Source of the DNA: a bacterium
Lineage (GTDB): Bacteria; UBA8248; JACPRG01; G963555815
DNA: 64,000 bases
Reading direction: 5' to 3'
Assembly (NCBI GenBank): GCA_963555815.3
Contig: CAUVWX020000001.1
Location: forward strand, 1,248,001 to 1,312,000
A program made the translations under genes and the position numbers. Within the stretch, counting starts at the first letter, position 1. Every line of letters starts with the position of its first letter. The notes under the pieces were generated by a model. That model worked only from the letters and a program-made list of their open reading frames with translations, did no database searches and was not told where the DNA came from. This document shows positions 23,166 through 48,850 of this stretch, piece after piece.

Positions 23166-23175
23166 CTAGATCCTA

Positions 23176-31033: not shown

Positions 31034-31150
31034 CCGGTGGCTGGCCGGACAAAATCCTTTGGACCCCGGCCTGAGACTAAAATGTCACCGGGTGCCGGGG
31101 GGCCCCTTCCCCGATAGGGGTGGCGCTCCCCCAAGCGCTGGGCCTACCCC

Positions 31151-32185
31151 GTGAAGAACGCCCTCTTCTCTTTACTGCTCCTTGTGGCTCTCTTCTTCTT
31201 GGTCGAGGGAGTCCTCAGGTTTTTCGTCTTCGAAAGTTCTGCCGTAGGCATCTGGGGGTTCAACCCTTATGGCCAGGGAGACCTGCGAGGGGGTGTTGAC
31301 TCCGTCGTACTCATCAAGCCAGAACTTCCTTACCGTTTGGTGACGGACGATGAGGGCTTTAGAACCTGCGGCCGGGAAGGCACGGAGACTTCTTTGCGGG
31401 TCCTCGCTGTTGGAGATTCCTTCACCTTTGGTCCCTATGTAGAAAATGAATCCACCTACCCATGTCTCCTTCAGGAAACCCTCAATGCAGTGGATTCAGA
31501 CCACCGATTTGAGGTCCTGAACGCCGGCATCCCCGGATATACGGTGACGGACGAGCGCCACTATCTCTTAGAAAAAGGTTTGGAGCTCAAGCCTCAAGTG
31601 GTCCTCCTTGGGATTTATACGAACGATATCGTGGACCTTGCGCCTTCTGCCCGGGCCAAGTTCGCACGGCCCGGTCACCAAGACAGGCTTCAAGGGGCGC
31701 GTTTTTATATGAGGCGCCTCGCCTGGTACGACCTGGCAGTCCGCATTCGATATGCGGCTCTCTCCAGAGGGACGCCTGCCAAAGTGCGCCCTCCCCCAAC
31801 TCCGCCTGATCGTGAGAAAGCAAGAGCCCTTACCCCGTCAGTGGGGGAATGGCAGCCCTATTGGCCGGAATATCAATCTGGCTTAAGGGGGCTTGTGAGC
31901 GACCTGCGGCAGCGCCAAATCCCCCTACTCGTCATTCTCTTTCCGCACGTCGCTCAGGTGGAGGGCAGATCTTCTGAGGAGATTCAGGAGGCCATTCGGG
32001 AGGTCTTGTTGGAAGAAGGGGTTCCCTTTATTGATCTCCTTCCTCACTTCCAAGAGGAACCCGGTGGGCTCTATCTGCTTCCTATCAACCATCATCTCTC
32101 AGCGCGTGGAAACCGCCTGGCAGCCGACCTGATCCGCGAAGCTCTCGTGAGGCACGCGCTCATTCCCGCCCCGGTCAATCGGTAA
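31151..32185 (+). CDS. membrane-anchored SGNH/GDSL hydrolase (AlgX/AlgJ-like)
   Basis: GDSFTFG, NAGIPGY, Y.ND, HH.S.RG. Confidence 0.85.
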   Translation: MKNALFSLLLLVALFFLVEGVLRFFVFESSAVGIWGFNPYGQGDLRGGVDSVVLIKPELPYRLVTDDEGFRTCGREGTETSLRVLAVGDSFTFGPYVENESTYPCLLQETLNAVDSDHRFEVLNAGIPGYTVTDERHYLLEKGLELKPQVVLLGIYTNDIVDLAPSARAKFARPGHQDRLQGARFYMRRLAWYDLAVRIRYAALSRGTPAKVRPPPTPPDREKARALTPSVGEWQPYWPEYQSGLRGLVSDLRQRQIPLLVILFPHVAQVEGRSSEEIQEAIREVLLEEGVPFIDLLPHFQEEPGGLYLLPINHHLSARGNRLAADLIREALVRHALIPAPVNR

Positions 32186-32208
32186 AGTCGAAAAGGGGAT
32201 GTTCTCTG

Positions 32209-33405
32209 TCAAGGAAGTATCGGGAGATCCTTGGTGGGGGACGATGCCGCATTTTCGTGGAAGTCCCTGGAACTTAGCAAACTCTCGATTTCGATAACAG
32301 CTTTTCGGTTCGATTCCTCTGGCAACAGTTTTTTAACCTCTGGTGAGATGATCTCCGCCAGAATCCTGTTACCTTTCGAATTCAGGTGGACTCTATCGAC
32401 GTGTGTGTCCTTGAACTGGGTCCTATCCCACATCTCGTGGAATGCATCGACGACAGCGATCCCAAGTTCCCTCCCCAAGCGGTCATAATTAGCATGTGCG
32501 CGGTAGGTTCCAATGGCCCAAAACTCATGGAGAGTGATGGAACTACGCTTTTCATTCACCAAGGTTGGCACCTGCTCTACCTTCTTGGGGTGAACGCCGA
32601 AAACCTGCTTCACTAGGAGAATTTTGATTTTCCTGGAGAGGTATTCTTGCAAGAATGATTTCATAGCGTTGTAGTGGTTTTCAGCCCATTCGCGCTCAGC
32701 CAAAATGTCCAGAATTGAAGCGTTATTTGTGGTTCTAGTGACCACTATTCCATCCAGGTCCCCCACATTCCAGCGGCTTGGTGGAGTTGCGTAGGCAAAT
32801 GAAGGGTCTCCGTGTCGCAAAAGAGCGACCTTCTCAATCAATAGGATATAGAAGAGAGAATACCTTGTTATCAGTTCCTTTGCATCAACCGTAAGCTGCA
32901 CAAAAAGGTTGTTGGTACGCGGGTACCCTAGGCCATTTTGATAGTCATTATGCCCATTGTAGACAATGATCAAATCCACTTCCGGACTACCCGCCTTGGC
33001 ATGGATAGCTCGCAGATGTCCGGAATCCGAACCGGGGATTCCAGCGTTCATCACATGAAATCTCTTTGCATTCAGACCCGCATTAAGAATGTGTTCGAGA
33101 TGCACGGGGTAAGATTGATCAGGCGGCGCTCCTGCCCCGTAGGTGGACGAGCCTCCAAATGTCATAATTTTAATTTGCTCCGCGCTTCCAGGTGGGATGG
33201 GGTCAACGGCAAAATGATGCCTTGTCAGCAAGTCCCCTTTCTCTGTAAACCCGAATAAAAGCGAATGGGGTCCTGAGCGGATCGCCCTGTAAACTCGTGC
33301 GGATCCTTCGATGCCGACGACAAACAGGATCACTGCAACACCCGTGTACAACAAGCTTTTCCACCATGGAAGTCGAACCGCCATCAGAAGAGATCTCCTG
33401 ATCAA
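32209..33405 (-). CDS. membrane-anchored SGNH/GDSL hydrolase (AT-richer)
   Basis: FGGSSTYG, NAGIPG, G.ND, DRVHLN. Confidence 0.85.
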   Translation of the reverse strand: MIRRSLLMAVRLPWWKSLLYTGVAVILFVVGIEGSARVYRAIRSGPHSLLFGFTEKGDLLTRHHFAVDPIPPGSAEQIKIMTFGGSSTYGAGAPPDQSYPVHLEHILNAGLNAKRFHVMNAGIPGSDSGHLRAIHAKAGSPEVDLIIVYNGHNDYQNGLGYPRTNNLFVQLTVDAKELITRYSLFYILLIEKVALLRHGDPSFAYATPPSRWNVGDLDGIVVTRTTNNASILDILAEREWAENHYNAMKSFLQEYLSRKIKILLVKQVFGVHPKKVEQVPTLVNEKRSSITLHEFWAIGTYRAHANYDRLGRELGIAVVDAFHEMWDRTQFKDTHVDRVHLNSKGNRILAEIISPEVKKLLPEESNRKAVIEIESLLSSRDFHENAASSPTKDLPILP

Positions 33406-33454
33406 TACGTCTTAGATTGTCTGCCTCTCACTCTAAAAGTACAGATGAGATCAT

Positions 33455-34807
33455 CTATATCCATTTTCGGACCCTACCAGAAGAGACGACCTCATTCAGG
33501 GGAGGCGGGAGACTTCCCTGATAGATGGAAAGAAGTCGGGGCAGGATACGCTCCGGGGCAAAGCGTTCCCCCAGGAGGGCCCGCCCCGCTTGACCCATAT
33601 CGGCCGCCCGGACTGGGTCTTGCAGGAGGTCGGCGATCCGGTCCGCCAGCTCTCTTGGATCACCCGGCTTGACGACGAACCCCGTCACCTGATCCTCGAT
33701 GATCTCGGGTATTCCTCCCACGCGGCTCCCCACCACCGGCTTGGAAAGGCTCATGGCCTCCAATAAGACCCGGGCGAGGGGCTCTGGCCAGGTGGAAGGC
33801 AAGATCATGACACTTGAAATCGAGAACAGATCGATGACTTCCTTGTTAGAGAGCGGAGGGATGTGAAACAGGTTTCCATTCTCTCGATAGGAATCCGGAA
33901 AGGGGATAGCTGGATTGGGGGAACCCACCACGACGAAGAGGGCCTTGGGCACCTTTTGCATCACCAGGGGGATGGCCTCAAAGAGGATATGGGCCCCCTT
34001 CCCGAATGAGATCTTCCCTGCTGCATATGTGACGAGGGGACGGCCCTCCGGAAGGCCGAACTTGATGTGGATCTCTTCGGAGGAGGAGGAGCGGGGAGCC
34101 TGAGGCGGGGGAAGGTTGTACACCGCCACCATCCTGGAAGCACACTCCGAGAAACCGCAATCGAGATAGAGTCGGCGGATCCCTTCGGAGACGGGGATAA
34201 TCGTATCCATGCGTCGAAGGCACCAGCGCCGAAGGAGGAGGTCCAGGCCTCGGTGGACCCCTCCGAGGAGGAATTTCATGCAGCCCAGCCATCGAAGTTG
34301 GGGATGATTTCGCCTCTGAAAAGCGGTGAGGCACTGAAGGTAGTTCCGTGCACCACACCTGGAAGAGATAATCTCGCCAGGGAGGGCGCAACCCTGCCCC
34401 CCCGTGCAAAGGGTGCTGGTGTCCCGAAGTGTCTGAAAAACCTTTATGTGAGAGAGGCGCCCCGCTAGGAGAGATCCGACCGCTGAATAGGAGTTCTGGG
34501 CGTGAAGGACCTCGAGTCCCTCTCGCCGGATCACCCACATCAGAAATAGGGCTTGATAGAGATAGTGGAGAGGATTCACCAGGAAGAGGCCCCGGGCCAT
34601 CTCGCCTGGACTCAGGCGCTGGGGAAAGGGATAGCGATAGATGAAAACTCCGTCTTCTACCTCCTTGGCTTGGGCCCCGTAGTTTGGCGTCACGACCACC
34701 ACCTTGTGGCCCGAGGCGGAGAGGGCGCGGGCCAGCTGACAGGTGCTTTGGGCCGCGCCGCCGACGGCGAAGGGGGGATAGTCCTCAATAACGAGCCCGA
34801 TGTTCAA
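33455..34807 (-). CDS. glycosyltransferase family 4 with a Cys-rich insert
   Basis: YPP..VGGA, KG, PS.WPEP..RV..EAM, GG.PE. Confidence 0.9.
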   Translation of the reverse strand: MNIGLVIEDYPPFAVGGAAQSTCQLARALSASGHKVVVVTPNYGAQAKEVEDGVFIYRYPFPQRLSPGEMARGLFLVNPLHYLYQALFLMWVIRREGLEVLHAQNSYSAVGSLLAGRLSHIKVFQTLRDTSTLCTGGQGCALPGEIISSRCGARNYLQCLTAFQRRNHPQLRWLGCMKFLLGGVHRGLDLLLRRWCLRRMDTIIPVSEGIRRLYLDCGFSECASRMVAVYNLPPPQAPRSSSSEEIHIKFGLPEGRPLVTYAAGKISFGKGAHILFEAIPLVMQKVPKALFVVVGSPNPAIPFPDSYRENGNLFHIPPLSNKEVIDLFSISSVMILPSTWPEPLARVLLEAMSLSKPVVGSRVGGIPEIIEDQVTGFVVKPGDPRELADRIADLLQDPVRAADMGQAGRALLGERFAPERILPRLLSIYQGSLPPPLNEVVSSGRVRKWI

Positions 34808-34834
34808 CTTGTAGTTTCTCCTTGGAACTCTGTC

Positions 34835-36439
34835 TCAGACCCTGGGCAGGGCGGGCTCTCGCGGGGCCCTTTCCTCCCGTGCCCATCTCGAAAAGAGGCG
34901 CTGGACTTCGATCCCCTTAAGGACCACCGCCACGGCCTTGAAGGCGAGCATCCCCAGGGCGGCGGCCATGGCCCCCAGGTGGCCCCCCAGCCCAAAGGAG
35001 AGGATCAAAAAAGGGGCTATCGCCACCAAGGTCCACCTCAGTTCGATGTCCATCCGTCCGATTGTGAGGAAGAAGGGGCCTTGGGGCATGGAGTAGGCCC
35101 CCGTGGCCGAGGCCAGCAGGATGATGAGATAGAGGGGAAAGGCCGCAAGGTAACTCCCGCCAGAGAACCAGAGGAAGAAGACATATCCCGCCGGAACCAG
35201 GAGGACGGAAATCCCGCCGAGCGTCAGGAGAGAGAATCTCTCGATCTTCCGGTAAGTCTGACGGAGGAATTTTAAGCCTTGGACCCTGGCCTCGGGGAGA
35301 CGACTTCGGGTATTGGTGATGAGTGGGTTGGCGAGGACCCGTGGGATGTTGGCGAGCCTAAGAGCCATCGCGAACTGACCTGTCGCCGCCAGGCCGGCGA
35401 AGTGAGAGACCAAGATCACAGGGAGGTTCTCATAGATGCTGAAGACCCCCTTGTGTGCATGGTAGGTCATGTTGACCCCAAGATACTTTCGGCAGTCCTT
35501 CAAATATCCCCCCTGGCGCCAGATCCCCCAGACAGAGAAATAGGGAGGTTGTTTTCGTCTGGCATAGACCTTGTAGGCCAGGAAGCCGTAGCCCGATCCG
35601 ATGAGATAGGCCAGCACATTGGCCCAAAGGGCACCTTGGACGCCGAAGCCAGCCGCCACTGCCCCGAGGACGAGGGCGGATCGAACAAAGGCGTCGGTGA
35701 GGCCAAGGGCGGCATGGGCCCTCATCGCCCGAAGGCCAAGGAAGAAGAGGCTCGCAAAGAGATAGAAGATGCCGGCCAGGTTTTGGAGCGTGAGGATCAT
35801 CACCAGATGAGGGGGCAGGGTTGTTCCAAAGAGGAGCGAGGAGAGAGAGCCGATCAAAAGGGACCCCACACCCAACAGGAGAAGGGAGAGGATCAGCTGA
35901 CTCTTCAGGAAAAAAGCAAGGATCCTTCGGGCTTCTTCCCTCTTTCCCCGAAGGCGCGCATCCGAAAAGAAGACAACGGCGGTATTTAGAACCGGTGGCT
36001 GGACAATTACATGGAGAATGCCATAGACGCCGAAGGCGAGTGAATAGAGGCCGAGGTCTGTCGCACCTAAGAGGGAGGCCAGGGCGAGGAAGGCCAGCAT
36101 GCGGACGGCATTGGACACAACGTGAGCCGCCTCAAGGTAAAAAGAATCTGCCACAAATTTTGTCCGAAGGACTTTTGGAAAACGCATCGACAGTTTGTTG
36201 AATGGAAATGGAAAGCGGGGCAGTTTGGGTTTTTCCGCGGCCGCTCCTGAAGGGGCCTCTACGACTGGCCGCTCCAGGAGGCCCATCATCTCTTTCCGAA
36301 GGCGTTTTGCGACGTCAGGGCGCTCCCTGGAGCGCTCTTGAGTCTCATCAGGATCGCTCAGGATGTGAAAGAGCGAGGATTCCCCTGTCTTTCTGTTCCA
36401 GAGGTATTTCCATTCCCGGGAGCGGAGGGAGACCCACAT
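34835..36439 (-). CDS. Wzx-type oligosaccharide flippase, preceded in frame by a sulfatase-like C-terminal segment
   Basis: Multi-TM MOP-type pattern (LA.LLG...LGLY, G.F..A.RL); first ~80 aa read SLRSREWKYL...LF.I.SDP.E. Confidence 0.8.
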   Translation of the reverse strand: MWVSLRSREWKYLWNRKTGESSLFHILSDPDETQERSRERPDVAKRLRKEMMGLLERPVVEAPSGAAAEKPKLPRFPFPFNKLSMRFPKVLRTKFVADSFYLEAAHVVSNAVRMLAFLALASLLGATDLGLYSLAFGVYGILHVIVQPPVLNTAVVFFSDARLRGKREEARRILAFFLKSQLILSLLLLGVGSLLIGSLSSLLFGTTLPPHLVMILTLQNLAGIFYLFASLFFLGLRAMRAHAALGLTDAFVRSALVLGAVAAGFGVQGALWANVLAYLIGSGYGFLAYKVYARRKQPPYFSVWGIWRQGGYLKDCRKYLGVNMTYHAHKGVFSIYENLPVILVSHFAGLAATGQFAMALRLANIPRVLANPLITNTRSRLPEARVQGLKFLRQTYRKIERFSLLTLGGISVLLVPAGYVFFLWFSGGSYLAAFPLYLIILLASATGAYSMPQGPFFLTIGRMDIELRWTLVAIAPFLILSFGLGGHLGAMAAALGMLAFKAVAVVLKGIEVQRLFSRWAREERAPREPALPRV

Positions 36440-37495
36440 CCCGCTCCGCTAGCAAACCGGGTTTCGCTAAGGGCCAGAAGGTCGAGGTGCTCCACCCTCC
36501 CCTCCATGAGGGGAAGGAGGCTCACGCCCTCGACGGCCCCCCCGAGGGGGATTTTTAGAGAGTCCAGGACTGTCGGGACGATATCGATCCCCCGGACCAT
36601 CTCCTCTACCTTCTTGGGGTGGCAACCCGGATAGCGGACGAGGAGTGGAACCCGGAGCTCCCCATCATAGAGATAGTGGCCGTGGGAGTGCCATTCCCCA
36701 TGTTCCCCAAAGTTCATCCCGTGGTTCCCGAAGATGAAGACAAGGTCTTCGGGCCTCAGGACGTCTAGGACCGCCCGTAGGTGGCGGTCCGCATAGGAGA
36801 GACGGCTGTCCCAGTAATCCAGGTTATATCGGCGGTGAATATGGATTGGCTCTGTGTCGTCTTCCCGATCGGTCTCATGGAAGTGAAAGTCAGGTGGATC
36901 AGGACATCGCCCGTGGATGTCGAGGTAGTGAATCATGGTGAAGTGGGGCGAGGGGGCCCTGGAGAGCCAATTGAGGGCCGTCTCGTTCGTAAGGTGGGCC
37001 ACCCGGTGGCTGCCAGCCCGGGTGGCCGTGTCCTCAGGCTGGACGGGGAGATATTCGTCAAACTGGCGACCCAGGTCGTCGAAGCGGCATCGCTTGCCCA
37101 GAAATCTCCAGCGGTTGAAAAATTCTGGCCGATAATAGCGGAGAAATCCAAAACGTGGGACCCAGTACCCCTGCCACATTGGAGCGAGCGGAGGGGACGA
37201 GCCGGGTCCGGTAACCATGGGCGGAGAGGTGCCTGGGAAGGGAGAGGAACCGCTCATCCCAGTGGAAGTCCCAGATGTTCTTCACCCGGTCAAAGGCACG
37301 GGTGTTGAGTCCTGTGAGGAAGGAGGAGAAGCTCATGTAAGTTGAAGTGGCCTGGGCGATCATGTTGGGGAAGTAGATGGCCTCTGACCGAAAGGCGTCT
37401 AGATTGGGGGTCGGGGCAGCCTCCAAGCGGGCCGTCCGAAGAGAGTCAATCACGATGAAAATGACGTTTGGCCGTCTCTTCACATCCTCAGACAC
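36358..37495 (-). pseudogene. sulfatase-like alkaline-phosphatase-superfamily protein, two frameshifts (near 37160 and near 36440)
   Basis: RPNVIFIVIDSLR, TPNLD, TYMSFSSFLTG, HGY.T; HYLDIH, GNHG..FGEHG...HG..LYD...RVPL, IDIVPTVL. Confidence 0.8.
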
Positions 37496-37699
37496 TCAGC
37501 CCGCTCCCTCAGGGGCCCCAAATCCCCTACGAATTCAAACCCTCAGAGTCTTGGTCCCATCTTGCTAAAAACTCGAATCCTATATGCCGGTATTAAAAGG
37601 GGTCAAGCCCTCATTCCACATCCCTATACTCAGGACTCAGGGGAAATTTTGGAATGCGTCATTTTCTTACATCAGTATAGAACCGATGTCGTTTTCTCG

Positions 37700-38815
37700 T
37701 CAGACACTACACTCGGGCGATGCGGAAAGCTCCGTCAAGAGTTCCCTCACAACATCAAGGTGGTTCTGGCAAGCCTGCTTCGGGGGGGTTGAGGTGATGA
37801 GGGGGACAAGGGCCTCATGGGCGGAGCCGTGAGACCGGAGCCGGACCTCCTGCCGGTCTGCCTTTAGTGGGCCAAAGACCGTGTGCGCGTCTCCGAGAAC
37901 GAAGAGGTCTCCGATCCTCTCGGTCATCAGCCGAAAGCGGGACGCCGCCTCATCTCTCAGGAAGACTGATTCGACGCCGGGGGTCTCAAGAAGGCGCTGG
38001 GCCGCCTCTTTGGTGCGCTCAGGGCGCTTGAGGAAGACATAGCAGGCCCCGCTCAGGTTCTGGTGGTGGACGACGTGTTCATCCCGGATGATGGGAATCG
38101 TCCGGGATGGGATCTTCTGGCGCGCCAGCACCCGGTCTAGATCCGCCGCCTCCCGCTTTTCCCGCATCCCGTGGTCTGCGGTGATAAAAAGCCTCCGGTC
38201 TGGGTTTTCTTCCTGGATGCGACCGAGCTCGGCGTCGAGGGCGTTGAAGTGAGCCTGGGCCTCGGGGGATTCGGGAGGATGATGGTGGGGGATGTAGTCC
38301 GTCGTCGCCGCAAAGACGAGGGTGGGTTTTCTTTTCTTCAGGACGTGTCTTACGGCTTGGAGCATCCAGAGGTCGATGGTGGAGGAATAGATGTCCTCCT
38401 TCGGGCCCACAGCCTCCACCATTTCTTTTGGCGGGGACTGGGCGGAGAAGGCGATTCCGGATCCCCGGGAGAGAAGGCGGCAAAGTTTTGCCTTTGAGGT
38501 CACAAGAGCGGTGGAAAGGCCCGCAGCTTCCGCCCGTTCTAAGAGGGTGGGGGTCGCGAGAAAGGAGGAAGACTCCATAAAAGTCTCCTCTCCTGTGTGT
38601 GAATCGTAGTGATAGTTGGAGGTGATCCCATGGATTTCTGGAAAGGACCCTGTGAGAAGAGAGGCGCAATTGACATTGGTCACGGTGGGGATGACGGCGT
38701 GGACAAGGGAGCGAGTTCCGGAGTGGCCGATGTGATCTAGATGGGGGGTTTTGACCACCTCCAGGTAGGCAGGGTCGAGTCCGTCGATGCAGAGGATGAG
38801 GACTGGGCTCTTGAT
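37700..38815 (-). CDS. phosphonoacetate hydrolase-like alkaline-phosphatase-superfamily enzyme
   Basis: ILCIDG.DP.YL, PTVTNVN..S..TG, TTDY..H, TADHGM, RIGD, LRSHG resemble PhnA; needs a non-canonical start at about 38815. Confidence 0.8.
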   Translation of the reverse strand: MKSPVLILCIDGLDPAYLEVVKTPHLDHIGHSGTRSLVHAVIPTVTNVNCASLLTGSFPEIHGITSNYHYDSHTGEETFMESSSFLATPTLLERAEAAGLSTALVTSKAKLCRLLSRGSGIAFSAQSPPKEMVEAVGPKEDIYSSTIDLWMLQAVRHVLKKRKPTLVFAATTDYIPHHHPPESPEAQAHFNALDAELGRIQEENPDRRLFITADHGMREKREAADLDRVLARQKIPSRTIPIIRDEHVVHHQNLSGACYVFLKRPERTKEAAQRLLETPGVESVFLRDEAASRFRLMTERIGDLFVLGDAHTVFGPLKADRQEVRLRSHGSAHEALVPLITSTPPKQACQNHLDVVRELLTELSASPECSV

Positions 38816-38874
38816 GGTCAGCCTCCTGTGGGACAGCCCAAATCTCGAATAAGGCGCTTATGCCTTTGTGTCTC

Positions 38875-39642
38875 TCAAGGCTTTTTGGGGGGCCAGACCT
38901 TCTGGGCCTCATGATAATCTTGAGGGGTGTCTATCTCAAAGACACCTCCCTCAATGTCTATGGTACCCACTGGGAACCCTCGTCCGGTGAGCTCAGAGAA
39001 AAAATCCGTCAGGTAGGCCTTCTCGAAGGTCGCAGCTTGTTGAAAGGCCCCTTCGGGCTGGGTGCGATAGGCCTCTGAGAGGTCCCGGTAGATGCGGCGG
39101 GCCCGTTTGGCCCCCTCAGGGGAGAATTTTGCCAGGCCGATGAACTCCCCGTGGGCCGTCTCAGGGTCTTTGAACCCTTTCCCGATCTGGACCACTTTCC
39201 CCGCGGAGGCCCAGACGAGGTCCGCCTCCTCGACGGGATGCTGGAGGCGACCCAGGTAGCGCTCCCGCCACCTTAGGTCGCACACCACACCCACTTCCCC
39301 CGGGTAAGCCAGAAGCCTCTCCACTACCTCTGGACCATATAAGATGTCCGAGTAGGCAGGAATGAATCCTTCAGCCATAAAGGGAGAGGCGCAGAACAGA
39401 GAACGAAGCGTGGCAGTATTCCCGAAGTCCGGATTTTCAAAGTAGGTGAGGCCGGGATAGTTGATGGTCTCGCCCAGGTGGCCCCGGACAAGGGCGATCT
39501 CCCTCACCTCGGCGGCCCTCAGCGACTCAAGCTGCCAATCGAGAATGGTCTTTTGGCCTATCCGATGAAGACACTTTGGAAGATCCTGGGCAAGGGGCAT
39601 CATCCGGGATCCCAAGCCAGCTGCGAGGATGATGGCCTTCAA
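38875..39642 (-). CDS. phosphonyl/phosphocholine-type cytidylyltransferase (NTP transferase)
   Basis: AIILAAGLGSR..P...PKCL, N.DF..T...SL, YSDI, GEFIGL.KFS, EIDT..D. Confidence 0.88.
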   Translation of the reverse strand: MKAIILAAGLGSRMMPLAQDLPKCLHRIGQKTILDWQLESLRAAEVREIALVRGHLGETINYPGLTYFENPDFGNTATLRSLFCASPFMAEGFIPAYSDILYGPEVVERLLAYPGEVGVVCDLRWRERYLGRLQHPVEEADLVWASAGKVVQIGKGFKDPETAHGEFIGLAKFSPEGAKRARRIYRDLSEAYRTQPEGAFQQAATFEKAYLTDFFSELTGRGFPVGTIDIEGGVFEIDTPQDYHEAQKVWPPKKP

Positions 39643-39683
39643 GATGGCTCCCTTTAGGCTAGTGGGAATTTTCTCCGGAGGTT

Positions 39684-40370
39684 TTAGCCTTCAAACCACT
39701 GCACATCCTCAATGATCCGGGCTGCCCCCCTCTTTCCAATAATGGCGAGTTCCTGGGCGGCCTCCCCCGAGAGGTTCCCGGCAAAAGTGAAGGCTAGAAT
39801 TTCGGCTGGGTCCTTGGGGTTACAGCTGAGGAAAGAGTGGGGGACGAAGGGGCGGATGTAGAAACAGTCTCCTTCCTCCATTTCCTGTCTTTTGATTTCC
39901 CCCTCCGATTTCCAGTAGAAGCGAAGCCGTCCGTGCAACACATAAGTGCACTGATGGAGGGAATGTCCTTTGTTCATCTGCAGATCCGCCTCATCGGAGC
40001 ACAGGAGGGTGAGAAGTTCCGGTTTCATGGTTGGGATCTCGGTGCTCGTCACAAGGTCAGCATATTCATAGTAGGGTTTCCCACCCCGCGTAATGGTCCG
40101 CACATAACGGTCTCGCTTTCTCAAGATCTTGACGCCGTCCGTAGTGTCCCTCGCCATGGGGAACATGTCCCGAACATTGAGGGTCATCGCTTGGGCCAAT
40201 TGTTGAATCTGGTCGAACGTTGGAGAAATCTCTCCTGACTCGATCTCCTGGATGGTTTTGACTGGCAGGCCGGCCCTTTCAGCAAGGAGATCTTGCGTCA
40301 ACTTCCCACTGTTTCGATGGGCGAGAATGAGCGTGCCGAAATCCATTGAGAGGCTAGATGTCGTCTTCAT
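39684..40370 (-). CDS. HTH-cupin non-heme Fe enzyme, HppE/HEPD/MPnS family (single-domain, MPnS-like signature)
   Basis: RGGKPYYEY.D, N.GHSLHQ.TY, G.L.FYW, GD..YI.PF.PH.F, C-terminal QWF; located within the phosphonate operon. Confidence 0.8.
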   Translation of the reverse strand: MKTTSSLSMDFGTLILAHRNSGKLTQDLLAERAGLPVKTIQEIESGEISPTFDQIQQLAQAMTLNVRDMFPMARDTTDGVKILRKRDRYVRTITRGGKPYYEYADLVTSTEIPTMKPELLTLLCSDEADLQMNKGHSLHQCTYVLHGRLRFYWKSEGEIKRQEMEEGDCFYIRPFVPHSFLSCNPKDPAEILAFTFAGNLSGEAAQELAIIGKRGAARIIEDVQWFEG

Positions 40371-40423
40371 CACCTCGCTCCTTTCAGATGGAAGACTTTT
40401 CCGTGTGGATTGTCCACCCGACG

Positions 40424-41545
40424 TCAAAACACGGCCATCAAGATCTTCTTGATGTCCTCCCGGGACAACGGCCTCGGATTGTAGCCCATTCGCTCCGGAT
40501 AAGACCAGTCTTGAATGAGTGCTTCTACGTCCCCCTCCCTAAGCCCAAGGGCCGTGAGCCTCATCGGGTGACCTGCCTCCCGAAGGAGCCGGGAGAGGGC
40601 CTTCCCGCCTGCTTCAGCGTCAGGGGCCCCAAGGGCCCGGGCAATGGCCGAGGCCGCCTCAGGGGCCGCCTCGGTGTTGAAGGGGAGGAGGGGAGGAAGG
40701 GTAATGGAGCAGGCCACTCCATGGGGAACCTGGTAGAGGAGCGTCAAAGGATAGGAGAGGGCGTGAGCCGCGGCCGTCTTCGTCTGACTGAAGGCCAAAC
40801 CTGCATGGAGGCTCGCCCGGCTCACCTCGCTCCTCGCCTTCAGATTCTGGGGGTCCTGTCTTACCCGAGGAAGACCAGCGGCCAGCCCCCTCACCGCCTC
40901 CAGGGCCAAGAGGGTGGAGATGGGGTTTCGGTTCCGAGACCAGCAGGCCTCCACCGCGTGGGAGAGGGCATCCAGACCGCTCGCCATGGTCACGGAAGGT
41001 GGAAGGGAAAGGGTCAGAGTCGGATCGACCAGGGTGAGATCCGGAAAGAGACCAGGGCCTTCAAGAGAATATTTTCTCCTTCCTTCCCAGTCCCAGAGGG
41101 TGGCCCAGGGCGTGACCTCGCTCCCGGTCCCTGCCGTCGTCGGGATAGCCACCAGGGGAAGCCGTGTCGTTCCAGGCGGCACGCCCTCTCGAAGATATCT
41201 CAAGAGCTCTTCCTCATTTGCCAAAAGTGCTACAGCCTTCGCCATATCAATGACACTTCCGCCGCCCACCGCCAGGATAATCTCGGCCCCCTTCTCCCTG
41301 GCGAGCTGGCTTGTCGTCAGGGCGCTCGAGGGGCTTGGGTTCGGGGGGACGGGCGGAGCCGCATCGACCGAGAAACCGTCGAGGAGTTTTAGTAGGCGGG
41401 CATACAGAGGGGATTGAAAAAGGTGGTTTCCGGCAAGGAGGAAGATGTGTCCTCTGAGCTCTCGAAGGAGATCAGGGAGGGTATCGAGGACCCCAATGCC
41501 GAAGTGGACAGAAGTGGGGAGGTGAAAACGGAAGTCTTCCTTCAT
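40424..41545 (-). CDS. iron-containing alcohol dehydrogenase, probable phosphonoacetaldehyde reductase
   Basis: GGGSVID.AK, PTTAGTGSE.T, DAL.HA.E..WS, T..AHA.SYP...PHG; ATGA overlap with the decarboxylase beta gene. Confidence 0.88.
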   Translation of the reverse strand: MKEDFRFHLPTSVHFGIGVLDTLPDLLRELRGHIFLLAGNHLFQSPLYARLLKLLDGFSVDAAPPVPPNPSPSSALTTSQLAREKGAEIILAVGGGSVIDMAKAVALLANEEELLRYLREGVPPGTTRLPLVAIPTTAGTGSEVTPWATLWDWEGRRKYSLEGPGLFPDLTLVDPTLTLSLPPSVTMASGLDALSHAVEACWSRNRNPISTLLALEAVRGLAAGLPRVRQDPQNLKARSEVSRASLHAGLAFSQTKTAAAHALSYPLTLLYQVPHGVACSITLPPLLPFNTEAAPEAASAIARALGAPDAEAGGKALSRLLREAGHPMRLTALGLREGDVEALIQDWSYPERMGYNPRPLSREDIKKILMAVF

Positions 41546-42108
41546 GCCACTTCGTTCTCGGACTTTAAACATTCGCGCAAACGCTGCGTTAAGACTTCGG
41601 GTGGAATGGATACCCGGCCTATGCCTGGCGTTCCCTCGGGGCTTACCTTGACCCAGAAAAATGACGGCCCCGCTTTGATGACGTTAAGGGTCTCTCTGAG
41701 CTCTGTTGGCGAGGAGAGGGTGTAGACCTCGCGGTAGCCGGCTGAGGCGGCGATGTCTGCCAAAGACAGATGGCCGCCTGGCCTTGGCTGTCCACCGGTG
41801 GATTCGTAGATGCCATTATCGAGGACGAGGTGGATGAGGCGTCCTCCGTTGGCCATTAATGGAAGGGTGCTGAGTCCCATGAGAAAGCTTCCGTCTCCAT
41901 CCAGGATCACCACTGGGCGTTCAGGGCGAAGAAGCGAGACGGCAAGGCCGAAGGAGGAGAGAAGGCCCATGGAACCTATCATGTAGAACTGGTTTGGCCG
42001 ATCTCCAAGGGCGAAGAGTTCCCGAGAGATCATCCCTGTTGTTGAGAGGAGAACTCCCTTGGACCCGAAGGCCTCCTGAATGATCTGAAGGGCCTCAGCA
42101 CGCCTCAT
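41542..42108 (-). CDS. phosphonopyruvate decarboxylase beta (ThDP-binding) subunit
   Basis: TTG.ISREL, FYM.GSMG, DGDGS.LM, DNG.YESTGGQ. Confidence 0.88.
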   Translation of the reverse strand: MRRAEALQIIQEAFGSKGVLLSTTGMISRELFALGDRPNQFYMIGSMGLLSSFGLAVSLLRPERPVVILDGDGSFLMGLSTLPLMANGGRLIHLVLDNGIYESTGGQPRPGGHLSLADIAASAGYREVYTLSSPTELRETLNVIKAGPSFFWVKVSPEGTPGIGRVSIPPEVLTQRLRECLKSENEVA

Positions 42109-42590
42109 CCGATCATCCCTTCCCGGAGGATAAGAGCTGCGGGGAGGCGCGTTTCCAGCATCTCTCGAAAGAGGGGTGAGAGACCGTCTGTGGCCTTTGG
42201 GGAGAAGACGAGAGAGGGAATTCCTAAGAGATCCAAAAGGGAGAGCATCTTTTCTCCCATGACCCAGTGTTCTGGAGCGTCCTGGCGGGTTTCCCCTCTC
42301 CAGGAGATCACCATCAGGATGGGGATGCGGTAGGGCAGGTTGAAAGAGGTTAGGCCGTTCACCACGTTTCCTAGGCCCGAATTCTGGATGAGGATGCCCC
42401 CTGGCCGCCCGCACATGTAGGCCCCGCTTGCCAGCCCCAGGGCCGTGTCCTCCCGAGCTGCGGGGAGATAGGTGACCTCAGGGTCGGCTTCGGCCTCGAT
42501 CAGGAGGGATTTCAGGAGAGAGCAGGGGACCCCTGAGAAGAAGGTGAGACCGTGCGATTTCAGAGTTGCCCAGAATCTTTGGGCGTCCAT
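42105..42590 (-). CDS. phosphonopyruvate decarboxylase alpha subunit
   Basis: FFSGVPCS.L, RED.A.G.A.G, QNSGLGN..N.L.S, WRG...DAPEH..MG. Confidence 0.88.
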   Translation of the reverse strand: MDAQRFWATLKSHGLTFFSGVPCSLLKSLLIEAEADPEVTYLPAAREDTALGLASGAYMCGRPGGILIQNSGLGNVVNGLTSFNLPYRIPILMVISWRGETRQDAPEHWVMGEKMLSLLDLLGIPSLVFSPKATDGLSPLFREMLETRLPAALILREGMIG

Positions 42591-42600
42591 CTCATCATCC

Positions 42601-44541
42601 TTAGCGGACGCGGCTCCAGGCCCGCTGATAGTCCTCAAAGGTATCCACATCCATCCAGCCGTGTAAGGCTTCAAAAGCCACCACCTTTTCTCCACGCTGG
42701 ATGAGCTCTTGGATCATGTCCGTGAAGCCCGCCTGTTCCAGGGAAGGCGCCTCGTGGAGGGGGGCGCCGGTCTTGCGTTGCAGGAGATCCTGATAGACCT
42801 CTCGAAGGATTTTCGTCCCTCGCTCCGAGAACATGCATAGGCCAACGAACTCCCCCTGAGACTGCTCTGGGTCCAGGCGGCGGCCGATCCGAAGAACTCG
42901 GGCATAAGATCCATCTCCAGCAAGACTCAGGGAGGGGTCCGTCATCACCAGCTCGGGGGGAAACTGGGCATCTTTTTTCGTCTCAGAAAAGGAGCGGTCT
43001 ACGAGAAGGCTCACATCGGCTGTGCTTCGAAGAAGCCCCTCTAAGAGCTGCCGCTCAAATAGGACGTCGCCGTACAGGAAGAGAAATGGTCCCTCCATCT
43101 CGGCTTCGGCGCAGAAAAGGGAGGAGAGGATGTGGGTCTCGCGAAAGCGCAGATTGTCATAGTAGCGAAGGTTGGGGAGATTGACCTTCTCTCTGAGGTA
43201 TCCACGGACAACCGCGATCTCTCGGATGTTCAAGGTGTTGAGGGTTTCCACCTGGCGCTCCAGAATGGATTTCCCCTTAATGTCGAGCATGGCCTTGGGC
43301 CGATCTTCGGTCAGGGGGAGAAGCTCCTCATGAGGCCCAGCCGCTACGATGAGGGCACGAAGGCGGTGACCGCCGACCGGAAGAAAGGCCTGCTCTTGGC
43401 GTTTCATGGACGAGAGGTCGATGAGCTGGTAGACGTCCTCTAGGGGGACGATCCGGTCATCCACGGCGCTCGCCTGACCCTCGGTGAGAAGGCGCTGAAA
43501 AACCTCTCGCATTCCAAAGACGCAAGCCCGGAGGGCCTGGTTGGCAAAGATAACCGCCTTGAAGCCCCAGGCGGAGAGCTCCTTTACAGATGTCGTCTTA
43601 TACATGGTCGGGACTGACACGAGGGGACAGGGCCGGTCCCACTGCCGGGCGAACTCCCGGACCTCCTCGGGGGAGGGGGACCTCGAGTGGATCAAGATGG
43701 CGTCAGCCCCAGCGTCGGCATAAGCCCGGGCCCGTCGAAGGGCCTCCCCCATCCCCCACCCGGCAATGAGTGCCTCACATCGGGCCATGACGAAAAATTC
43801 CGGCGTCTGCTGGTTTGCCTTAGCGGCTTGTAGCTTTCCGACATGCTCCTCGACAGAGACAAGCTCCTGTCTCACTCCTGGGTAGAGGCTGCATCGTTTG
43901 GGAAAGGCATTATCCTCAATACAGATCCCCGCTAGGCCTGCGCGCTCATACTCCACCACAGTTCTGATCACATTGATGGCGTTTCCGTACCCGTTGTCGC
44001 AGTCAGCAATGATGGGCAGGGCGACGGCATCGTTCATCTGGCGAGCGGCCTCCAGGTTCTCACTCATCGTCAAAAGGTTGGCGTCGGGCATCCCACGAGC
44101 CGCTGAGACCGAGAAGCCGCTGGCCCAGATGGCGTCGAAGCCCGCCTCCTCTGCGATCTTGGCACTGATCCCATCATGTGCCCCCGCCAACAGAACCACA
44201 GAGGGCCCCTCAAGGAGGGCCCTGAACTGCCGAGCCCGCGAGACGCCATTGAGCGAAACTTGGCCTGACAGAAACCTTCCTGATGAAGAACCACTCAGGG
44301 CGATTTGCTCGCCTTCGTTGTCCTTGGGAGGGAGGTGGCCGCTCGCTTGCAATAGTGAACGAAGTTCCAAGCCGTAGGCCTGGGCGAGTTTTTTAAGGAT
44401 GTTGAGGTGTGGGTCCTTGCGAATCCCCCGCTCGAGCTGGGAGATGTAAGGGCTTGAGACGCCTGAAGCCCCTGAAGCTTCACGGATAGAGAGTTTCGAG
44501 GCCTCTCTGGCCTTCTTTAGGACAGCTCCAAGCGGGTCCAT
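42601..44541 (-). CDS. pepM: XRE-HTH / PEP mutase / nucleotidyltransferase triple fusion
   Basis: N-terminal HTH (YISQLERG); GAHD..SA, WASGF, D.DNGYGN, IEDNAFPKRCS, AR.EALIAG, IHS, VPT.Y; C-terminal PLTEDRPKAML, YGDVLF, GEFVGL, W.D.DT. Confidence 0.85.
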   Translation of the reverse strand: MDPLGAVLKKAREASKLSIREASGASGVSSPYISQLERGIRKDPHLNILKKLAQAYGLELRSLLQASGHLPPKDNEGEQIALSGSSSGRFLSGQVSLNGVSRARQFRALLEGPSVVLLAGAHDGISAKIAEEAGFDAIWASGFSVSAARGMPDANLLTMSENLEAARQMNDAVALPIIADCDNGYGNAINVIRTVVEYERAGLAGICIEDNAFPKRCSLYPGVRQELVSVEEHVGKLQAAKANQQTPEFFVMARCEALIAGWGMGEALRRARAYADAGADAILIHSRSPSPEEVREFARQWDRPCPLVSVPTMYKTTSVKELSAWGFKAVIFANQALRACVFGMREVFQRLLTEGQASAVDDRIVPLEDVYQLIDLSSMKRQEQAFLPVGGHRLRALIVAAGPHEELLPLTEDRPKAMLDIKGKSILERQVETLNTLNIREIAVVRGYLREKVNLPNLRYYDNLRFRETHILSSLFCAEAEMEGPFLFLYGDVLFERQLLEGLLRSTADVSLLVDRSFSETKKDAQFPPELVMTDPSLSLAGDGSYARVLRIGRRLDPEQSQGEFVGLCMFSERGTKILREVYQDLLQRKTGAPLHEAPSLEQAGFTDMIQELIQRGEKVVAFEALHGWMDVDTFEDYQRAWSRVR

Positions 44542-44594
44542 CGATTCCCCCGAGAGATGGGTATTTTGTTAATTCCAGCAAATAAATTAGCGAA

Positions 44595-44622
44595 ATCATA
44601 ACGCTCCTTCTATCGCTGTCAA
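44595..44622 (-). promoter_or_regulatory. sigma70-type promoter for the phosphonate operon
   Basis: TTGACA-N16-TATGAT about 55 nt upstream of the pepM fusion start. Confidence 0.6.
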
Positions 44623-45014
44623 GGGGAATTTGAAGGGCCCCGGGCGACTGGCTGAGAATGGAGCTTTTCCTACGCGATACGCCGCGGTACGCTGAGGTCG
44701 CTAGTGGGGTGGGCGGATTGGCCAGTCGCCCTTCTCTTGCCAAGGCTGGGGAGAGCGCAGCGTCAAGGCCTCCTGTTCGAGAAAGGCCGTTCGCAAGATA
44801 TTATGGCGAAAGCTCCTCCTGCGAAGGCCTTGGACTGAAAGGGTCTGACCTGACACCTTCTTTTCCCGGTCCTTCTTTCATCCTTGACGAGTTAAGATGC
44901 CTGTGATATATACTGCGGCGCAAATGGGGTGCTGGCCCTAGAAGGGAGGACGTGGCCTCCAAGGGAGCGGCGCTGTCTGAGGATGTGACCCCTCTCTCTT
45001 GAGCTGAACGGCTG

Positions 45015-45932
45015 ATGGACTTTCTGTGGCACCGAAAACGCTATCCGACAGAATTGACGGTCGATGCCCATTCCGTCTGCAACGCGACCTGCGTCACCTG
45101 CCCCTACCCGAAGCTCAGCCAAGTGTTGGATCACGGCAAGATGGACTGGGACCTCTACACCAAGATCATCGACGACTTCGAGGGCATCTGCCGGCGGGAG
45201 GGTTTCCGGGGGTCCCTGAGCTATTGCAACATGAGCGAGCCCACGATCCTGAAGAACTTCTTCGACTATTTGGAGTATGCCTACCGCAAAGGATGCTTCT
45301 CCGTCTATTTCAACACGAACATGTCTTTCCTGACCCCCGCCTTCATCGACCGCCTGGTGGCAGAGAATGTCCTTCCGGACATCCATCTGAACATCATGTC
45401 CCTTGACAAGGATCAGTACGAGGAGTTCATGGGGATCGACTTTGAGACCACCATGGAGAACCTGGAGTACCTGGTGGAGCACTACGACACCCGTCAGGTG
45501 GACGCGGGCGTCCTCAGCCCCCCGCTGAATGGCAATGGGGTCAAGGAGTTCCAAATATTCTTCAAGAAGAGGAAGGTCAAAACCTATGTGGTCAAAGCTC
45601 GAGACCGGGCCCAGAACGTCCTCGACGAGATCCACCCCATCATAAATAAGACTTACGGCTGCAGGAAGAACCGGCCCTTGCGGCGGATGCTGGTGACCCA
45701 TGACGGCCGGGTCTTTCTCTGCTGCGAGGACATGGCCAATGAGGTCATCCTGGGGGATCTCAGGGAGGAGAGCGTCGAAGAGGTCTGGAACAGCGAGAAG
45801 TGTCGGGAGATCCTGGAGATCATCTACGAGGGGAAATCCGCAAACCCAAATTTCATCTGTTATCGCTGTGTCCATGGGGTGAAGAAAAAGCCCACCTTTC
45901 TTCATGAGGCCATGGGCTGGGACCCAGACTAG
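45015..45932 (+). CDS. radical SAM / SPASM-twitch protein
   Basis: CNATCVTC, EP, NTN; GC...P..DG.V.LCC.D..LG.L...W, C..C. Confidence 0.9.
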   Translation: MDFLWHRKRYPTELTVDAHSVCNATCVTCPYPKLSQVLDHGKMDWDLYTKIIDDFEGICRREGFRGSLSYCNMSEPTILKNFFDYLEYAYRKGCFSVYFNTNMSFLTPAFIDRLVAENVLPDIHLNIMSLDKDQYEEFMGIDFETTMENLEYLVEHYDTRQVDAGVLSPPLNGNGVKEFQIFFKKRKVKTYVVKARDRAQNVLDEIHPIINKTYGCRKNRPLRRMLVTHDGRVFLCCEDMANEVILGDLREESVEEVWNSEKCREILEIIYEGKSANPNFICYRCVHGVKKKPTFLHEAMGWDPD

Positions 45933-46212
45933 GTCCGTCGTTGCATTTCTTCCTTGGCGATCTTATGCGCTTTTGCGCGCCACCTCTTCTTCTTGAGCGG
46001 AACGGCTGATGGAATTTCTAAGACACCGAAAGTGCTATCCGATGAAGATAACAACGGAAGGACTCCACAACCTCTCTTCCGTGGCGCAGACACCCATGTT
46101 TGAAAGGGGTATGCAAGGGGGAAAAAGGGATTTTCGATTTCTGTCCGCCGGAAACAATTAGGCAAACCAGATCGCAATCATAGTTCTGAAGATCGCAGAT
46201 TAGAAGCCTTGT

Positions 46213-47184
46213 ATGATCCCTCATGAGTTATCTCCAAGAAAGATTAGGTTCCCTGAAACCGATCATCACTCTATTGTTTTAATTTCCGGGGCCAATCTCA
46301 GACATCAAAGGTTCGGATATCTTCTCCAAAAAGAATTTGGCGATCTGGTTTTGGCCTGGTTTCAGGTCGGAAAGCTGCCCGATTCTGCATACACAAAAGG
46401 CCGTAGAGAAAAGTTACGAATCTTGTGGGAGAAGGTGAAACGCAAACTCTCAGTAGCTTATGAGATTGAGGCCATCCGGGACTACGTAAAGAATCAGGGC
46501 TTAATTAAAAGTATAAAGAAGGGATTTGTCTCCTTCTTACCGGCGCTCCATACGATATACCTATTTCACAGACGTGGAAGGCGACAACTTTATTTGGACA
46601 AGACTTTTTTTGGACAAGAACTCGAGGAACTTAAGCTACACGCAAAATTGAGTCCCATTGTAGTAGACGATCCCCATTCGGAAGAGTTCGTTCAACGAAT
46701 CAAGAAGTTAGATCCTTACTTCCTTCTTTCCGTGGGCGGCCCCTTGTATAGCAAAAAGTTGTTGGAAAGCGTTCGGGGCGTTCCAATTAACCAACACGCG
46801 GGTTACTCGCCGAAATACAAAGGGGGCAATACAGTTGAATGGGCTCTCTATAACCGGGATCTGTATGGTGTGGGAAGTACGGTCCACATTACGACCAGCG
46901 GTGCAGACGCTGGCCCCATTTTGCGCCGGTCTCATCCATGCCTGCTGGATAGTGACACGCCCGAATGCTGTTTTGTAAAGGTCTTCAAATTGGGCAATGA
47001 ATTAGCTATCGAGGTGGTCAAAGACATTATGTTGAATAAGGAGATCTTCGTATACGATCAGCCGTCAGATGGCGGAATGACGTATCTGGGTTCGCAATTG
47101 AACAAGGATATTCTGGGAGCGATATATCGGGATTTTTCAAAAAAATGGCTGAAAAAGGAACTTGTAAGACTAAGGACCTTTTGA
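46213..47184 (+). CDS. formyltransferase-family protein (AT-richer)
   Basis: INQHAG.SP.YKG, G.TVH......DAGPI. Confidence 0.8.
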   Translation: MIPHELSPRKIRFPETDHHSIVLISGANLRHQRFGYLLQKEFGDLVLAWFQVGKLPDSAYTKGRREKLRILWEKVKRKLSVAYEIEAIRDYVKNQGLIKSIKKGFVSFLPALHTIYLFHRRGRRQLYLDKTFFGQELEELKLHAKLSPIVVDDPHSEEFVQRIKKLDPYFLLSVGGPLYSKKLLESVRGVPINQHAGYSPKYKGGNTVEWALYNRDLYGVGSTVHITTSGADAGPILRRSHPCLLDSDTPECCFVKVFKLGNELAIEVVKDIMLNKEIFVYDQPSDGGMTYLGSQLNKDILGAIYRDFSKKWLKKELVRLRTF

Positions 47185-47230
47185 AAGTCAACGTCCTTGT
47201 AACCAACAGTCACCCGCGGTAGGCGGTAGA

Positions 47231-48145: not shown

Positions 48146-48263
48146 GCAGGCCTGCGGAGCCCACTGCTCCTGGGAACCAATCCGGAAACCTTTAATACCG
48201 TTTATAATAAATTCGGCGAGCGAAAGGGGCTTGAGGGGCCAAAGGTTCTTGCGAGGTGATCAA

Positions 48264-48761
48264 ATGTTTCTCAGCGAAACGGACCGCCAGGAGGTCGAAT
48301 CCTTCCTGGCCTGGATTGAAGAGGCTTTCCGTTCGGACAGCCGGTTTCATCCCATCCATCCCAAAGACCCGGAGGTGGAAGGGGATCCCTCTGGGCTTGA
48401 GCGTTGCCTCATGATAGGCCCGCGGACCTGGGTCCAGGTTACCGCCAGTCCAGACAAGGGAGGGCTGACCGTCGCCCTCGCCACACGGGACCGCACCGTG
48501 AGCGAGGCCGTCGAGGGGAACTCCCTTCAGCTTGGAGACTCCTTCGAGGAGCTTCTCGAGGATGGCCTGGAAGACGCGGGGGAGGAGGACACCTACGCCG
48601 TCGACCACTACCATGACAGCGGGGCCTTTTTCTTCGAATCCAAGCTTCCGCTGGAGGGGAGCTGGTCGGACCTAAAGTCGCTTGAGGTGCGGGACAAGGC
48701 CCGAAAGATCATCCTTGGATATCGCCTGGGCCTTGGCCGATTCTTCTTGGACCAGGATTGA
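48264..48761 (+). CDS. hypothetical protein (acidic)
   Basis: GAGGTG RBS, ORF with host-like codon usage. Confidence 0.6.
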   Translation: MFLSETDRQEVESFLAWIEEAFRSDSRFHPIHPKDPEVEGDPSGLERCLMIGPRTWVQVTASPDKGGLTVALATRDRTVSEAVEGNSLQLGDSFEELLEDGLEDAGEEDTYAVDHYHDSGAFFFESKLPLEGSWSDLKSLEVRDKARKIILGYRLGLGRFFLDQD

Positions 48762-48775
48762 ACCGCTGACGGTGG

Positions 48776-48804
48776 GAGGGCCTCAAACAGGAGGCCCCTC
48801 TTTT
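48776..48804 (+). terminator. probable intrinsic terminator
   Basis: GAGGGCCTC-loop-GAGGCCCCTC followed by TTTT. Confidence 0.45.
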
Positions 48805-48850
48805 GTATCCCATCTGACTTTTGAGTTGCTTTCGTTCGTGAGGAGGTTTT

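Follow-up and report, generated by a model that had tools for sequence, protein, structure and literature searches.

All coordinates below are positions within the window, by which we mean the whole 64,000-nucleotide (nt) stretch of bacterial DNA analysed here. Its subject is an operon of 10 minus-strand genes, all co-oriented and spanning 44541 down to 32209, in which candidate phosphonate genes, among them one for a half-size iron oxygenase, precede genes of glycan assembly and export. The genes named in the original prediction are present, co-oriented and at the coordinates given there. The features are listed here.

44595 to 44622, minus strand: predicted sigma70-like promoter, TTGACA-16-TATGAT, matching the consensus at 11 of 12 positions
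42601 to 44541, minus strand: pepM, with XRE helix-turn-helix (HTH), phosphoenolpyruvate (PEP) mutase and nucleoside triphosphate (NTP)-transferase domains (TIGR02320, PDB 5unc, loop EDNxxPKxCS)
42105 to 42590, minus strand: ppdA, phosphonopyruvate decarboxylase alpha (TIGR03297)
41542 to 42108, minus strand: ppdB, phosphonopyruvate decarboxylase beta (TIGR03297)
40424 to 41545, minus strand: adh, group III iron alcohol dehydrogenase (Fe-ADH), likely a phosphonoacetaldehyde reductase of PhpC type (TIGR03405)
39684 to 40370, minus strand: single-module iron oxygenase (HTH-cupin, 228 residues) of the methylphosphonate synthase (MPnS)/hydroxyethylphosphonate dioxygenase (HEPD) family, an accessory gene (sequence alignments, family, model)
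38875 to 39642, minus strand: pntC, stand-alone PntC/LicC-type cytidylyltransferase (PF12804, intact GXG(T/S)RX4-8PK)
37700 to about 38815, minus strand: phnA, PhnA-like hydrolase of the alkaline phosphatase superfamily (TIGR02335, 1ei6)
34835 to 37495, minus strand: fusion of a sulfatase-like domain (Thr nucleophile) and a Wzx flippase, frameshifted here and intact elsewhere
33455 to 34807, minus strand: family 4 glycosyltransferase (GT4), conserved together with the fusion in a sister genome, G001
32209 to 33405, minus strand: SGNH gene, the last of the co-oriented run
19332 to 48145 (about 29 kb), no strand assigned: glycan locus with GT4, GT2 and GT9 glycosyltransferases, a priming sugar transferase and SGNH proteins

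ATGA overlaps join ppdA to ppdB and ppdB to adh (2 of 9 junctions), in keeping with the partial coupling originally described, and the other junctions are gaps of 10-204 nt. Only 10 nt separate pepM from ppdA, which places a phosphonopyruvate decarboxylase gene directly beside pepM; the 204-nt gap lies between phnA and the fusion. The near-consensus promoter proposed for the head of the operon lies about 54 nt upstream of pepM. It stands out by score and position only, the number of sigma70-like sites (9, versus 6.9 ± 2.7 in shuffled sequences) being at chance level. Operator-like inverted repeats near this site (two 6-of-7 pairs in 165 nt) were dropped as candidates, since their number is by estimate about what chance gives. 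Rfam returned zero matches over 30000-50000. Glycosyltransferases, a priming sugar transferase and modifying enzymes are encoded in the surrounding glycan locus, whose extent of about 29 kb is as predicted; membrane proteins, a radical SAM protein, a formyltransferase and a deacetylase-like protein belong to its further content. The predicted lack of a 2-aminoethylphosphonate (AEP) aminotransferase was borne out: none is encoded in the operon, and none of 4 matches genome-wide reaches the TIGR03301 cut-off.

A family of single-module oxygenases

The oxygenase has 228 residues, its own stop codon and one HTH-cupin module, equal to half an MPnS. Its best PDB sequence matches are MPnS (6b9s, 4e-50) and the HEPD of Streptomyces albus (SaHEPD; 6b9r, 1.5e-40), with HppE structures at E 2e-21 and 7e-16, and it aligns about equally well with either MPnS repeat (88 and 83 bits). 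With residue numbers counted from the MPnS alignments, K28, R102, Y110, N145, H148, Q152, F162, I184 and H190 of MPnS repeat 1 correspond to K23, R95, Y103, N133, H136, Q140, F151, I172 and H178, and the terminal helix of repeat 2 with W449 is retained as W225. The protein thus has the 2-His-1-Gln triad of MPnS (H136/Q140/H178), its positions K28, R102, Y110, N145 and W449, and its Phe/Ile markers. For these iron-triad, substrate and second-shell residues we assume the roles that Born et al. 2017 reportedly assigned to them in MPnS. The single HTH-cupin module is shared with HppE; Gln140 aligns with the HppE Glu, so that a 2-His-1-Glu triad is absent. An AlphaFold model built from 23 sequences (pLDDT 88, C-terminal tail at low confidence in the monomer) folds like HppE, HEPD and MPnS, and its top Foldseek matches are of HppE/Fom4/Psf4 type. 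The original label, MPnS-like, suits the active-site residues and the best PDB match; with one module the protein is not a canonical MPnS.

Successive homolog searches placed this protein in a family. The first gave 4 matches, including two full-length homologs (232-233 residues, 51-55% identity), and a profile search over 1.84 billion representatives added several more. The last found 174 proteins at E<=1e-10; names among the 120 of them listed are few, all XRE regulator or hypothetical. In an alignment of 124 single-module proteins (203-250 residues), R95, Y101, Y103, N133, H136, Q140, I172 and H178 do not vary, and 122 of the proteins keep K23. The stretch is carried in whole or in part by 20 public runs from 10 studies, and contigs of 7 runs were compared. 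Those of X1 and X2 span the oxygenase gene without insertions or deletions (indels), and X5 and X6 also have contigs on it. An assembly artefact or truncation was ruled out by the conserved homolog length and the indel-free X1 and X2 contigs. The single-module proteins are a family rather than a broken gene.

An independent locus of a single-module oxygenase beside phosphonate genes is found in two near-identical metagenome loci, L016 and L017, which read ppdA-ppdB-adh-oxygenase-pepM/pntC. The homolog there has 226 residues and 47% identity, and the PepM has a canonical EDK..NS motif. Most of the other loci among the 24 examined encode two-repeat enzymes. The cytidylyltransferase at L017:5643-6533 has a 50-residue N-terminal extension that by eye resembles a small DNA-binding domain, and the genes that follow encode a B12 radical SAM protein and an asparagine-synthetase-like protein.

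A tree of 101 modules, for which 42 of the 80 two-repeat proteins were kept and named references were not included, unites the seven core half-size rows as a clade of their own (99/94), apart from the canonical clades N (100/100) and C (100/99). P0137 and P0150 nest within the canonical N-modules and were treated as truncations. Approximately unbiased tests reject neither N and C together (p 0.48) nor half-size and N together (p 0.46), and on these modules a pre-duplication origin of the single-module oxygenases is possible. Four two-repeat members (P0006, P0007, P0016 and P0017) have Gly, Ser or Ala replacing Gln as the middle iron ligand and Gly/Ala markers; they form a separate clade (100/99), possibly with different chemistry. 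A large second single-module subfamily (P0025, P0275-P0389) has mostly Tyr/Ile markers and a C-terminal Tyr-Tyr, and is labelled XRE regulator or hypothetical where named. A scan of genome contigs for oxygenase relatives gave only 3 weak XRE-cupin loci, none of 91 viral stretches contained one, and look-alikes in the Atlas were HTH clusters, no more than a lead.

The same pathway and glycan with a HEPD-like oxygenase, yielding hydroxymethylphosphonate (HMP) or a mixture, is an unlikely alternative. The highest single-domain score of the oxygenase goes to SaHEPD repeat 1 (116.7 bits, against 88.3 for MPnS), the His-Gln-His triad is common to SaHEPD, and Tyr is frequent at position 151 across the wider family (Tyr 99, Phe 24 and Cys 1 among the 124). 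However, the 9-member clade to which the oxygenase belongs is mostly Phe and all Ile at the marker positions, versus Tyr163/Gly184 in SaHEPD, and the operon lacks a second dehydrogenase or an aminotransferase that would process HMP further. The Tyr-Gly motif, described as diagnostic of class II HEPD in PMC8976061, is absent here. From the Phe/Ile markers, methylphosphonate is our best guess for the product.

The sulfatase-like-Wzx fusion and the cassette of a sister genome

The sulfatase-like sequence is spread over three frames in this assembly, the last in frame with the Wzx flippase. Contigs of three other studies have one base fewer near 37188 and two fewer near 36438-36450, which restores a continuous fusion frame, and in G001 the fusion is a single open reading frame (ORF) of 883 residues. 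The break is either an assembly error or a strain lesion. Both domains of the originally described sulfatase-like/flippase element are present; they belong to one fusion gene, found in 2 of 51 genomes of the phylum. In the sulfatase-like domain, Thr occupies the nucleophile position and Pro and Arg are missing, a departure from C/S-x-P-x-R, which we take to be the formylglycine motif of sulfatases. No membrane segment is predicted before residue 464, so the domain likely faces the cytoplasm. It is homologous (E 1e-24 and 4e-13) to two Thr-type proteins beside a two-repeat oxygenase in another metagenome locus, L018.

G001 matches the window at 88-90% on both flanks and is unmatched over 37583-46052 save for a 97-nt piece. 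It keeps the GT4 gene and the fusion and has another cassette in the same slot. This cassette encodes a PRK05849 kinase-type protein (804 bits, above cut-off), a glutamine amidohydrolase that matches gamma-glutamyl-CDP-amidate hydrolase best (61 bits, below cut-off) and a LicC-type transferase. Presumably PRK05849 can be equated with Cj1418. By its gene content the cassette resembles a phosphoramidate-type, Cj1416-18-like set; according to PMC11800397, the Cj1415-18 genes make CDP-phosphoramidate in Campylobacter jejuni. Because two cytidine-activated donor cassettes precede one conserved fusion, we infer that the fusion is a candidate transferase for the phospho-donor, and this arrangement is the best evidence for such a role.

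The stand-alone cytidylyltransferase, 32% identical to the enzyme of the G001 cassette, has the full GXG(T/S)RX4-8PK motif and a PF12804 match, and the NTP-transferase domain fused to PepM lacks GXG(T/S)R in 120 of 120 best homologs. The Arg of this consensus is required in Tde-PntC, according to PMC6697681. The stand-alone enzyme, rather than the fused domain, is therefore the likely activator.

The phosphonate might instead end up on a lipid, on a protein glycan or in a small molecule, with the fusion an unrelated neighbour. We also consider this unlikely. The 204-nt gap and the broken frame would agree with it, as would L016/L017, which carry the cassette without the fusion; against it, another CDP-donor cassette takes this position in G001, ahead of the same fusion, the two-repeat oxygenase of L018 is flanked by homologous sulfatase-like genes, and the 26 ORFs scanned included no gene for a CDP-alcohol phosphotransferase, LicD or an ATP-grasp protein.

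Oxygenase-less strains and the other enzymes

Contigs of X5, X8 and X10 join 39643 to 40378/9, so that the oxygenase alone is missing and adh lies directly beside pntC. X5 and X10 are one sample, in which X5 carries both alleles at depths of 2.6 and 3.2; X8 comes from another study and is a single 3019-nt contig with more than 900 nt on either side of the junction. The junction rests on low-depth contigs, yet recurs in two studies. The oxygenase is thus an accessory gene, absent in some strains, and its absence is more likely a loss than its presence a recent gain, because the adh-oxygenase order is kept in L016/L017. The three oxygenase-less runs also have one extra base at 38881, at the end of pntC, which alters the last codons.

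Such strains make it conceivable that the glycan bears 2-hydroxyethylphosphonate (2-HEP) and that the half-size protein can be dispensed with, uses a different substrate (e.g. CMP-HEP) or is an HTH-cupin regulator. The strains missing just the oxygenase retain the remaining cassette, and relatives are labelled XRE regulators in databases. We nevertheless find this improbable: the iron triad, the phosphonate-binding positions and the Lys are near-invariant in the 124 sequences, L016/L017 preserve the adh-oxygenase order, with 47% identity, and the scores of true XRE-cupin proteins from relatives are far lower, the best having E 5e-11.

For PepM, PEP mutase is the best match both in NCBIfam (TIGR02320, 298.6 bits; phosphonopyruvate hydrolase, TIGR02321, 252 bits) and in PDB (5unc, 2e-88); its plasmid matches have 35-38% identity. 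Its loop reads EDNAFPKRCS, and EDNxxPKxCS is common to 120 of 120 best homologs, which indicates a conserved clade and not decay. A strict EDKX5NS filter was applied in two published inventories (PMC6697681, PMC8942020), and another tolerates the lack of two residues where Ppd is adjacent (bioRxiv 2020.11.04.368217). The XRE HTH occupies the PepM N-terminus (44350-44541, minus strand), and an extension of this length or an HTH annotation is absent from the 119 other best homologs. In G001, a separate, divergent XRE gene heads the cassette (L057:9816-10292).

TIGR03297 leads the sulfopyruvate decarboxylase models for both Ppd alpha (126 versus 113 bits) and Ppd beta (159 versus 130 bits). A second split thiamine pyrophosphate-dependent decarboxylase pair, 32-35% identical to PpdA/B and perhaps a sulfopyruvate decarboxylase, is encoded outside the window (G000:C1:176761-177866). 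The best model of Fe-ADH is TIGR03405 (304 bits). The PhnA-like protein matches 1ei6 (3e-51), and its Thr nucleophile and metal-ligand motifs (xDG, T, DY..H, DH, RSHG) align with that structure; no match to it occurred among the 24 metagenome loci. Its start is probably an ATC at 38815-38813 (minus strand), 6 nt after AGGAGG, since a start at the next GTG would leave out the xDG motif, which binds metal. The differences listed in three other runs include no substitution of this ATC, and four other genes of the unit start with TTG or GTG. A catabolic or sulfonate-directed role (phosphonopyruvate hydrolase, sulfopyruvate decarboxylase, HEP dehydrogenase and PhnA) is very improbable: the non-canonical PepM loop, the TIGR02321 score, the close sulfopyruvate decarboxylase scores and the presence of PhnA fit it, but PEP mutase is the best PepM match, PhnY has no genome match above cut-off and none near the operon, no phosphonate transporter was found among the ORFs scanned, a separate decarboxylase pair exists elsewhere in the genome, and the cytidylyltransferase and glycan genes fit synthesis.

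The genome comprises 2.08 Mb in 2 contigs and is 95.7% complete, with one PepM match and no match to PhnJ. No other among 51 genomes of the phylum matches TIGR02320 at E<=1e-70, so the phosphonate cassette was likely gained in this lineage. The genome also encodes a heme-copper oxidase subunit I, which makes O2 use plausible. In X20, an RNA run with the label sponge metagenome, a single 210-nt contig lies inside the oxygenase gene with one mismatch; it suggests a sponge habitat and gives a weak hint of oxygenase transcription. Elsewhere in the window, a 1-deoxy-D-xylulose-5-phosphate synthase-like gene (13634-15581, minus strand) is by eye split over two frames, a further sign of assembly indel errors or lesions. 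A short out-of-frame piece at 22907-23410 (plus strand), between GT4 and GT9 genes, looks by eye like the start of a nucleotide-sugar dehydratase and is a possible remnant.

Proposed pathway and known systems

The PepM/Ppd/PhpC-type best matches, the intact PntC motif, the Thr-type sulfatase-like homology and the G001 swap support phosphonate biosynthesis for a surface glycan, and judged on sequence the operon is most likely biosynthetic. Our main reading, to which we give a probability of roughly 45%, is that 37700-44541 is an exchangeable cassette that would lead from PEP to CMP-methylphosphonate, passed by the flippase fusion to an exported glycan. From what was directly seen, namely the gene content, the conserved active-site residues, the family, the oxygenase-less allele, the intact fusion elsewhere and the swap, we infer every catalytic step of this pathway. 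PepM would convert PEP to phosphonopyruvate, Ppd would convert this to phosphonoacetaldehyde and Adh would reduce the latter to 2-HEP, from which the O2-dependent half-size oxygenase would form methylphosphonate. A four-enzyme PEP-to-methylphosphonate route has been reconstituted, as reported in PMC12619172. The oxygenase may assemble as four identical modules, as in HppE, with Lys23 and the terminal Trp225 supplied by neighbouring subunits. The stand-alone PntC would then activate methylphosphonate to CMP-methylphosphonate, the sulfatase-like domain would transfer the phosphonyl group through a covalent Thr-phosphonyl intermediate to a sugar of a lipid-linked repeat, and Wzx would flip the decorated lipid-linked glycan for export. 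In strains without the oxygenase, 2-HEP would be the decoration. The PepM HTH may autoregulate the cassette, and the PhnA-like enzyme may, at a guess, salvage phosphonoacetate or CMP conjugates.

Several observations weigh against this reading. The oxygenase lacks the two tandem HTH-cupin repeats (about 450 residues) of MPnS. Its Phe/Ile markers were defined in two-repeat enzymes, and they vary within the family, with Tyr151 in 99 of the 124 relatives. Strains without it would end at 2-HEP. PepM falls below the TIGR02320 cut-off of 319.55, as does the canonical L017 PepM (313.5), and its loop departs from EDKX5NS. Ppd, Fe-ADH (cut-off 423.7) and PhnA (198.7 bits on the shorter GTG-start ORF, cut-off 407.55) are likewise under their family cut-offs. 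PhnA with PhpC is also a catabolic pairing, and PMC13576164 documents PhpC working together with PhnY-PhnA in catabolism. The 204-nt gap and weaker promoter-like sites set the Wzx fusion apart from the cassette, and the fusion is broken in this assembly, where the closest run, X1, leaves the breaks uncovered. L016/L017 have no sulfatase-like or PhnA match within 15-18 kb and an adjoining B12 radical SAM gene. The original proposal of CMP-activated methylphosphonate (or HEP/HMP) on a glycan is thus supported as to phosphonate biosynthesis for a surface glycan, and is modified by an oxygenase that has one module and is absent in some strains.

Methylphosphonate feeds aerobic methane release. A broader possibility, which we regard as doubtful, is that a sponge bacterium would use a single-module methylphosphonate synthase, linking HppE to the duplicated MPnS/HEPD, and vary its glycan among methylphosphonate, 2-HEP and phosphoramidate by gain, loss and swap of donor genes. 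If true, it would provide an endogenous methylphosphonate source in sponges, overlooked by mpnS searches and EDKX5NS filters alike. Surveys count methylphosphonate producers by canonical mpnS and EDKX5NS (bioRxiv 2020.11.04.368217, PMC6697681 and PMC8942020); this locus would fail the strict filter, and its oxygenase gene is half as long as mpnS is expected to be. In sponges, mpnS went undetected in one study, which inferred that methylphosphonate comes from seawater (bioRxiv 2022.10.21.513280), and the half-size oxygenase is a direct candidate for testing this external-source inference. The natural strains with and without the gene offer a ready comparison. How CMP-phosphonates are transferred to glycans is poorly defined, and the fusion, conserved behind two different donor cassettes, is a candidate transferase.

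The pathway logic is already known from Nitrosopumilus maritimus and PntC work. In open-licence papers, our literature search returned no single-module MPnS-type enzyme, no strain-level loss and no P-C/P-N swap on a sulfatase-like-Wzx fusion. The N. maritimus MPnS (6B9S/6B9T) shares the His-Gln-His, Phe/Ile, Lys, Arg, Tyr, Asn and terminal Trp positions; it has two modules (457 residues), whereas the present enzyme has one of 228. Its cluster, which we take to contain pepM, ppd, Fe-ADH, nucleotidyltransferase and sulfatase-like genes, resembles the neighbours both here and in L018/L020. Unlike that cluster, the present operon has an HTH-fused non-canonical PepM, a sulfatase-like domain fused to Wzx, a PhnA-like gene and an accessory oxygenase. 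Class II HEPD (S. albus 6B9R; AlpG) shares the triad and the highest single-repeat score, but has two repeats with Tyr163/Gly184, where the present single module has Phe151/Ile172. HppE/Fom4/Psf4 (1ZZ6, 5U55) shares the single HTH-cupin module, the top Foldseek matches and the equivalents of Lys23 and Tyr105; it differs in its His-Glu-His triad, its lack of a C-terminal helix and Trp tail, and its need for an upstream methylation step, which is not encoded in this operon.

PntC phosphonyl tailoring (Rice et al. 2019, PMC6697681) likewise places a PF12804 motif enzyme beside pepM and glycan genes. Characterised PntCs activate AEP, whereas here an AEP aminotransferase is absent and the PepM-fused copy lacks the motif. 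The C. jejuni Cj1415-Cj1418 system is matched in the G001 cassette by a kinase-type protein, an amidate-hydrolase-like protein and a LicC-type transferase. No Cj1415-like kinase was seen in 19.5 kb of the G001 locus, and transfer in G001 would use the sulfatase-like-Wzx fusion rather than Cj1421/1422.

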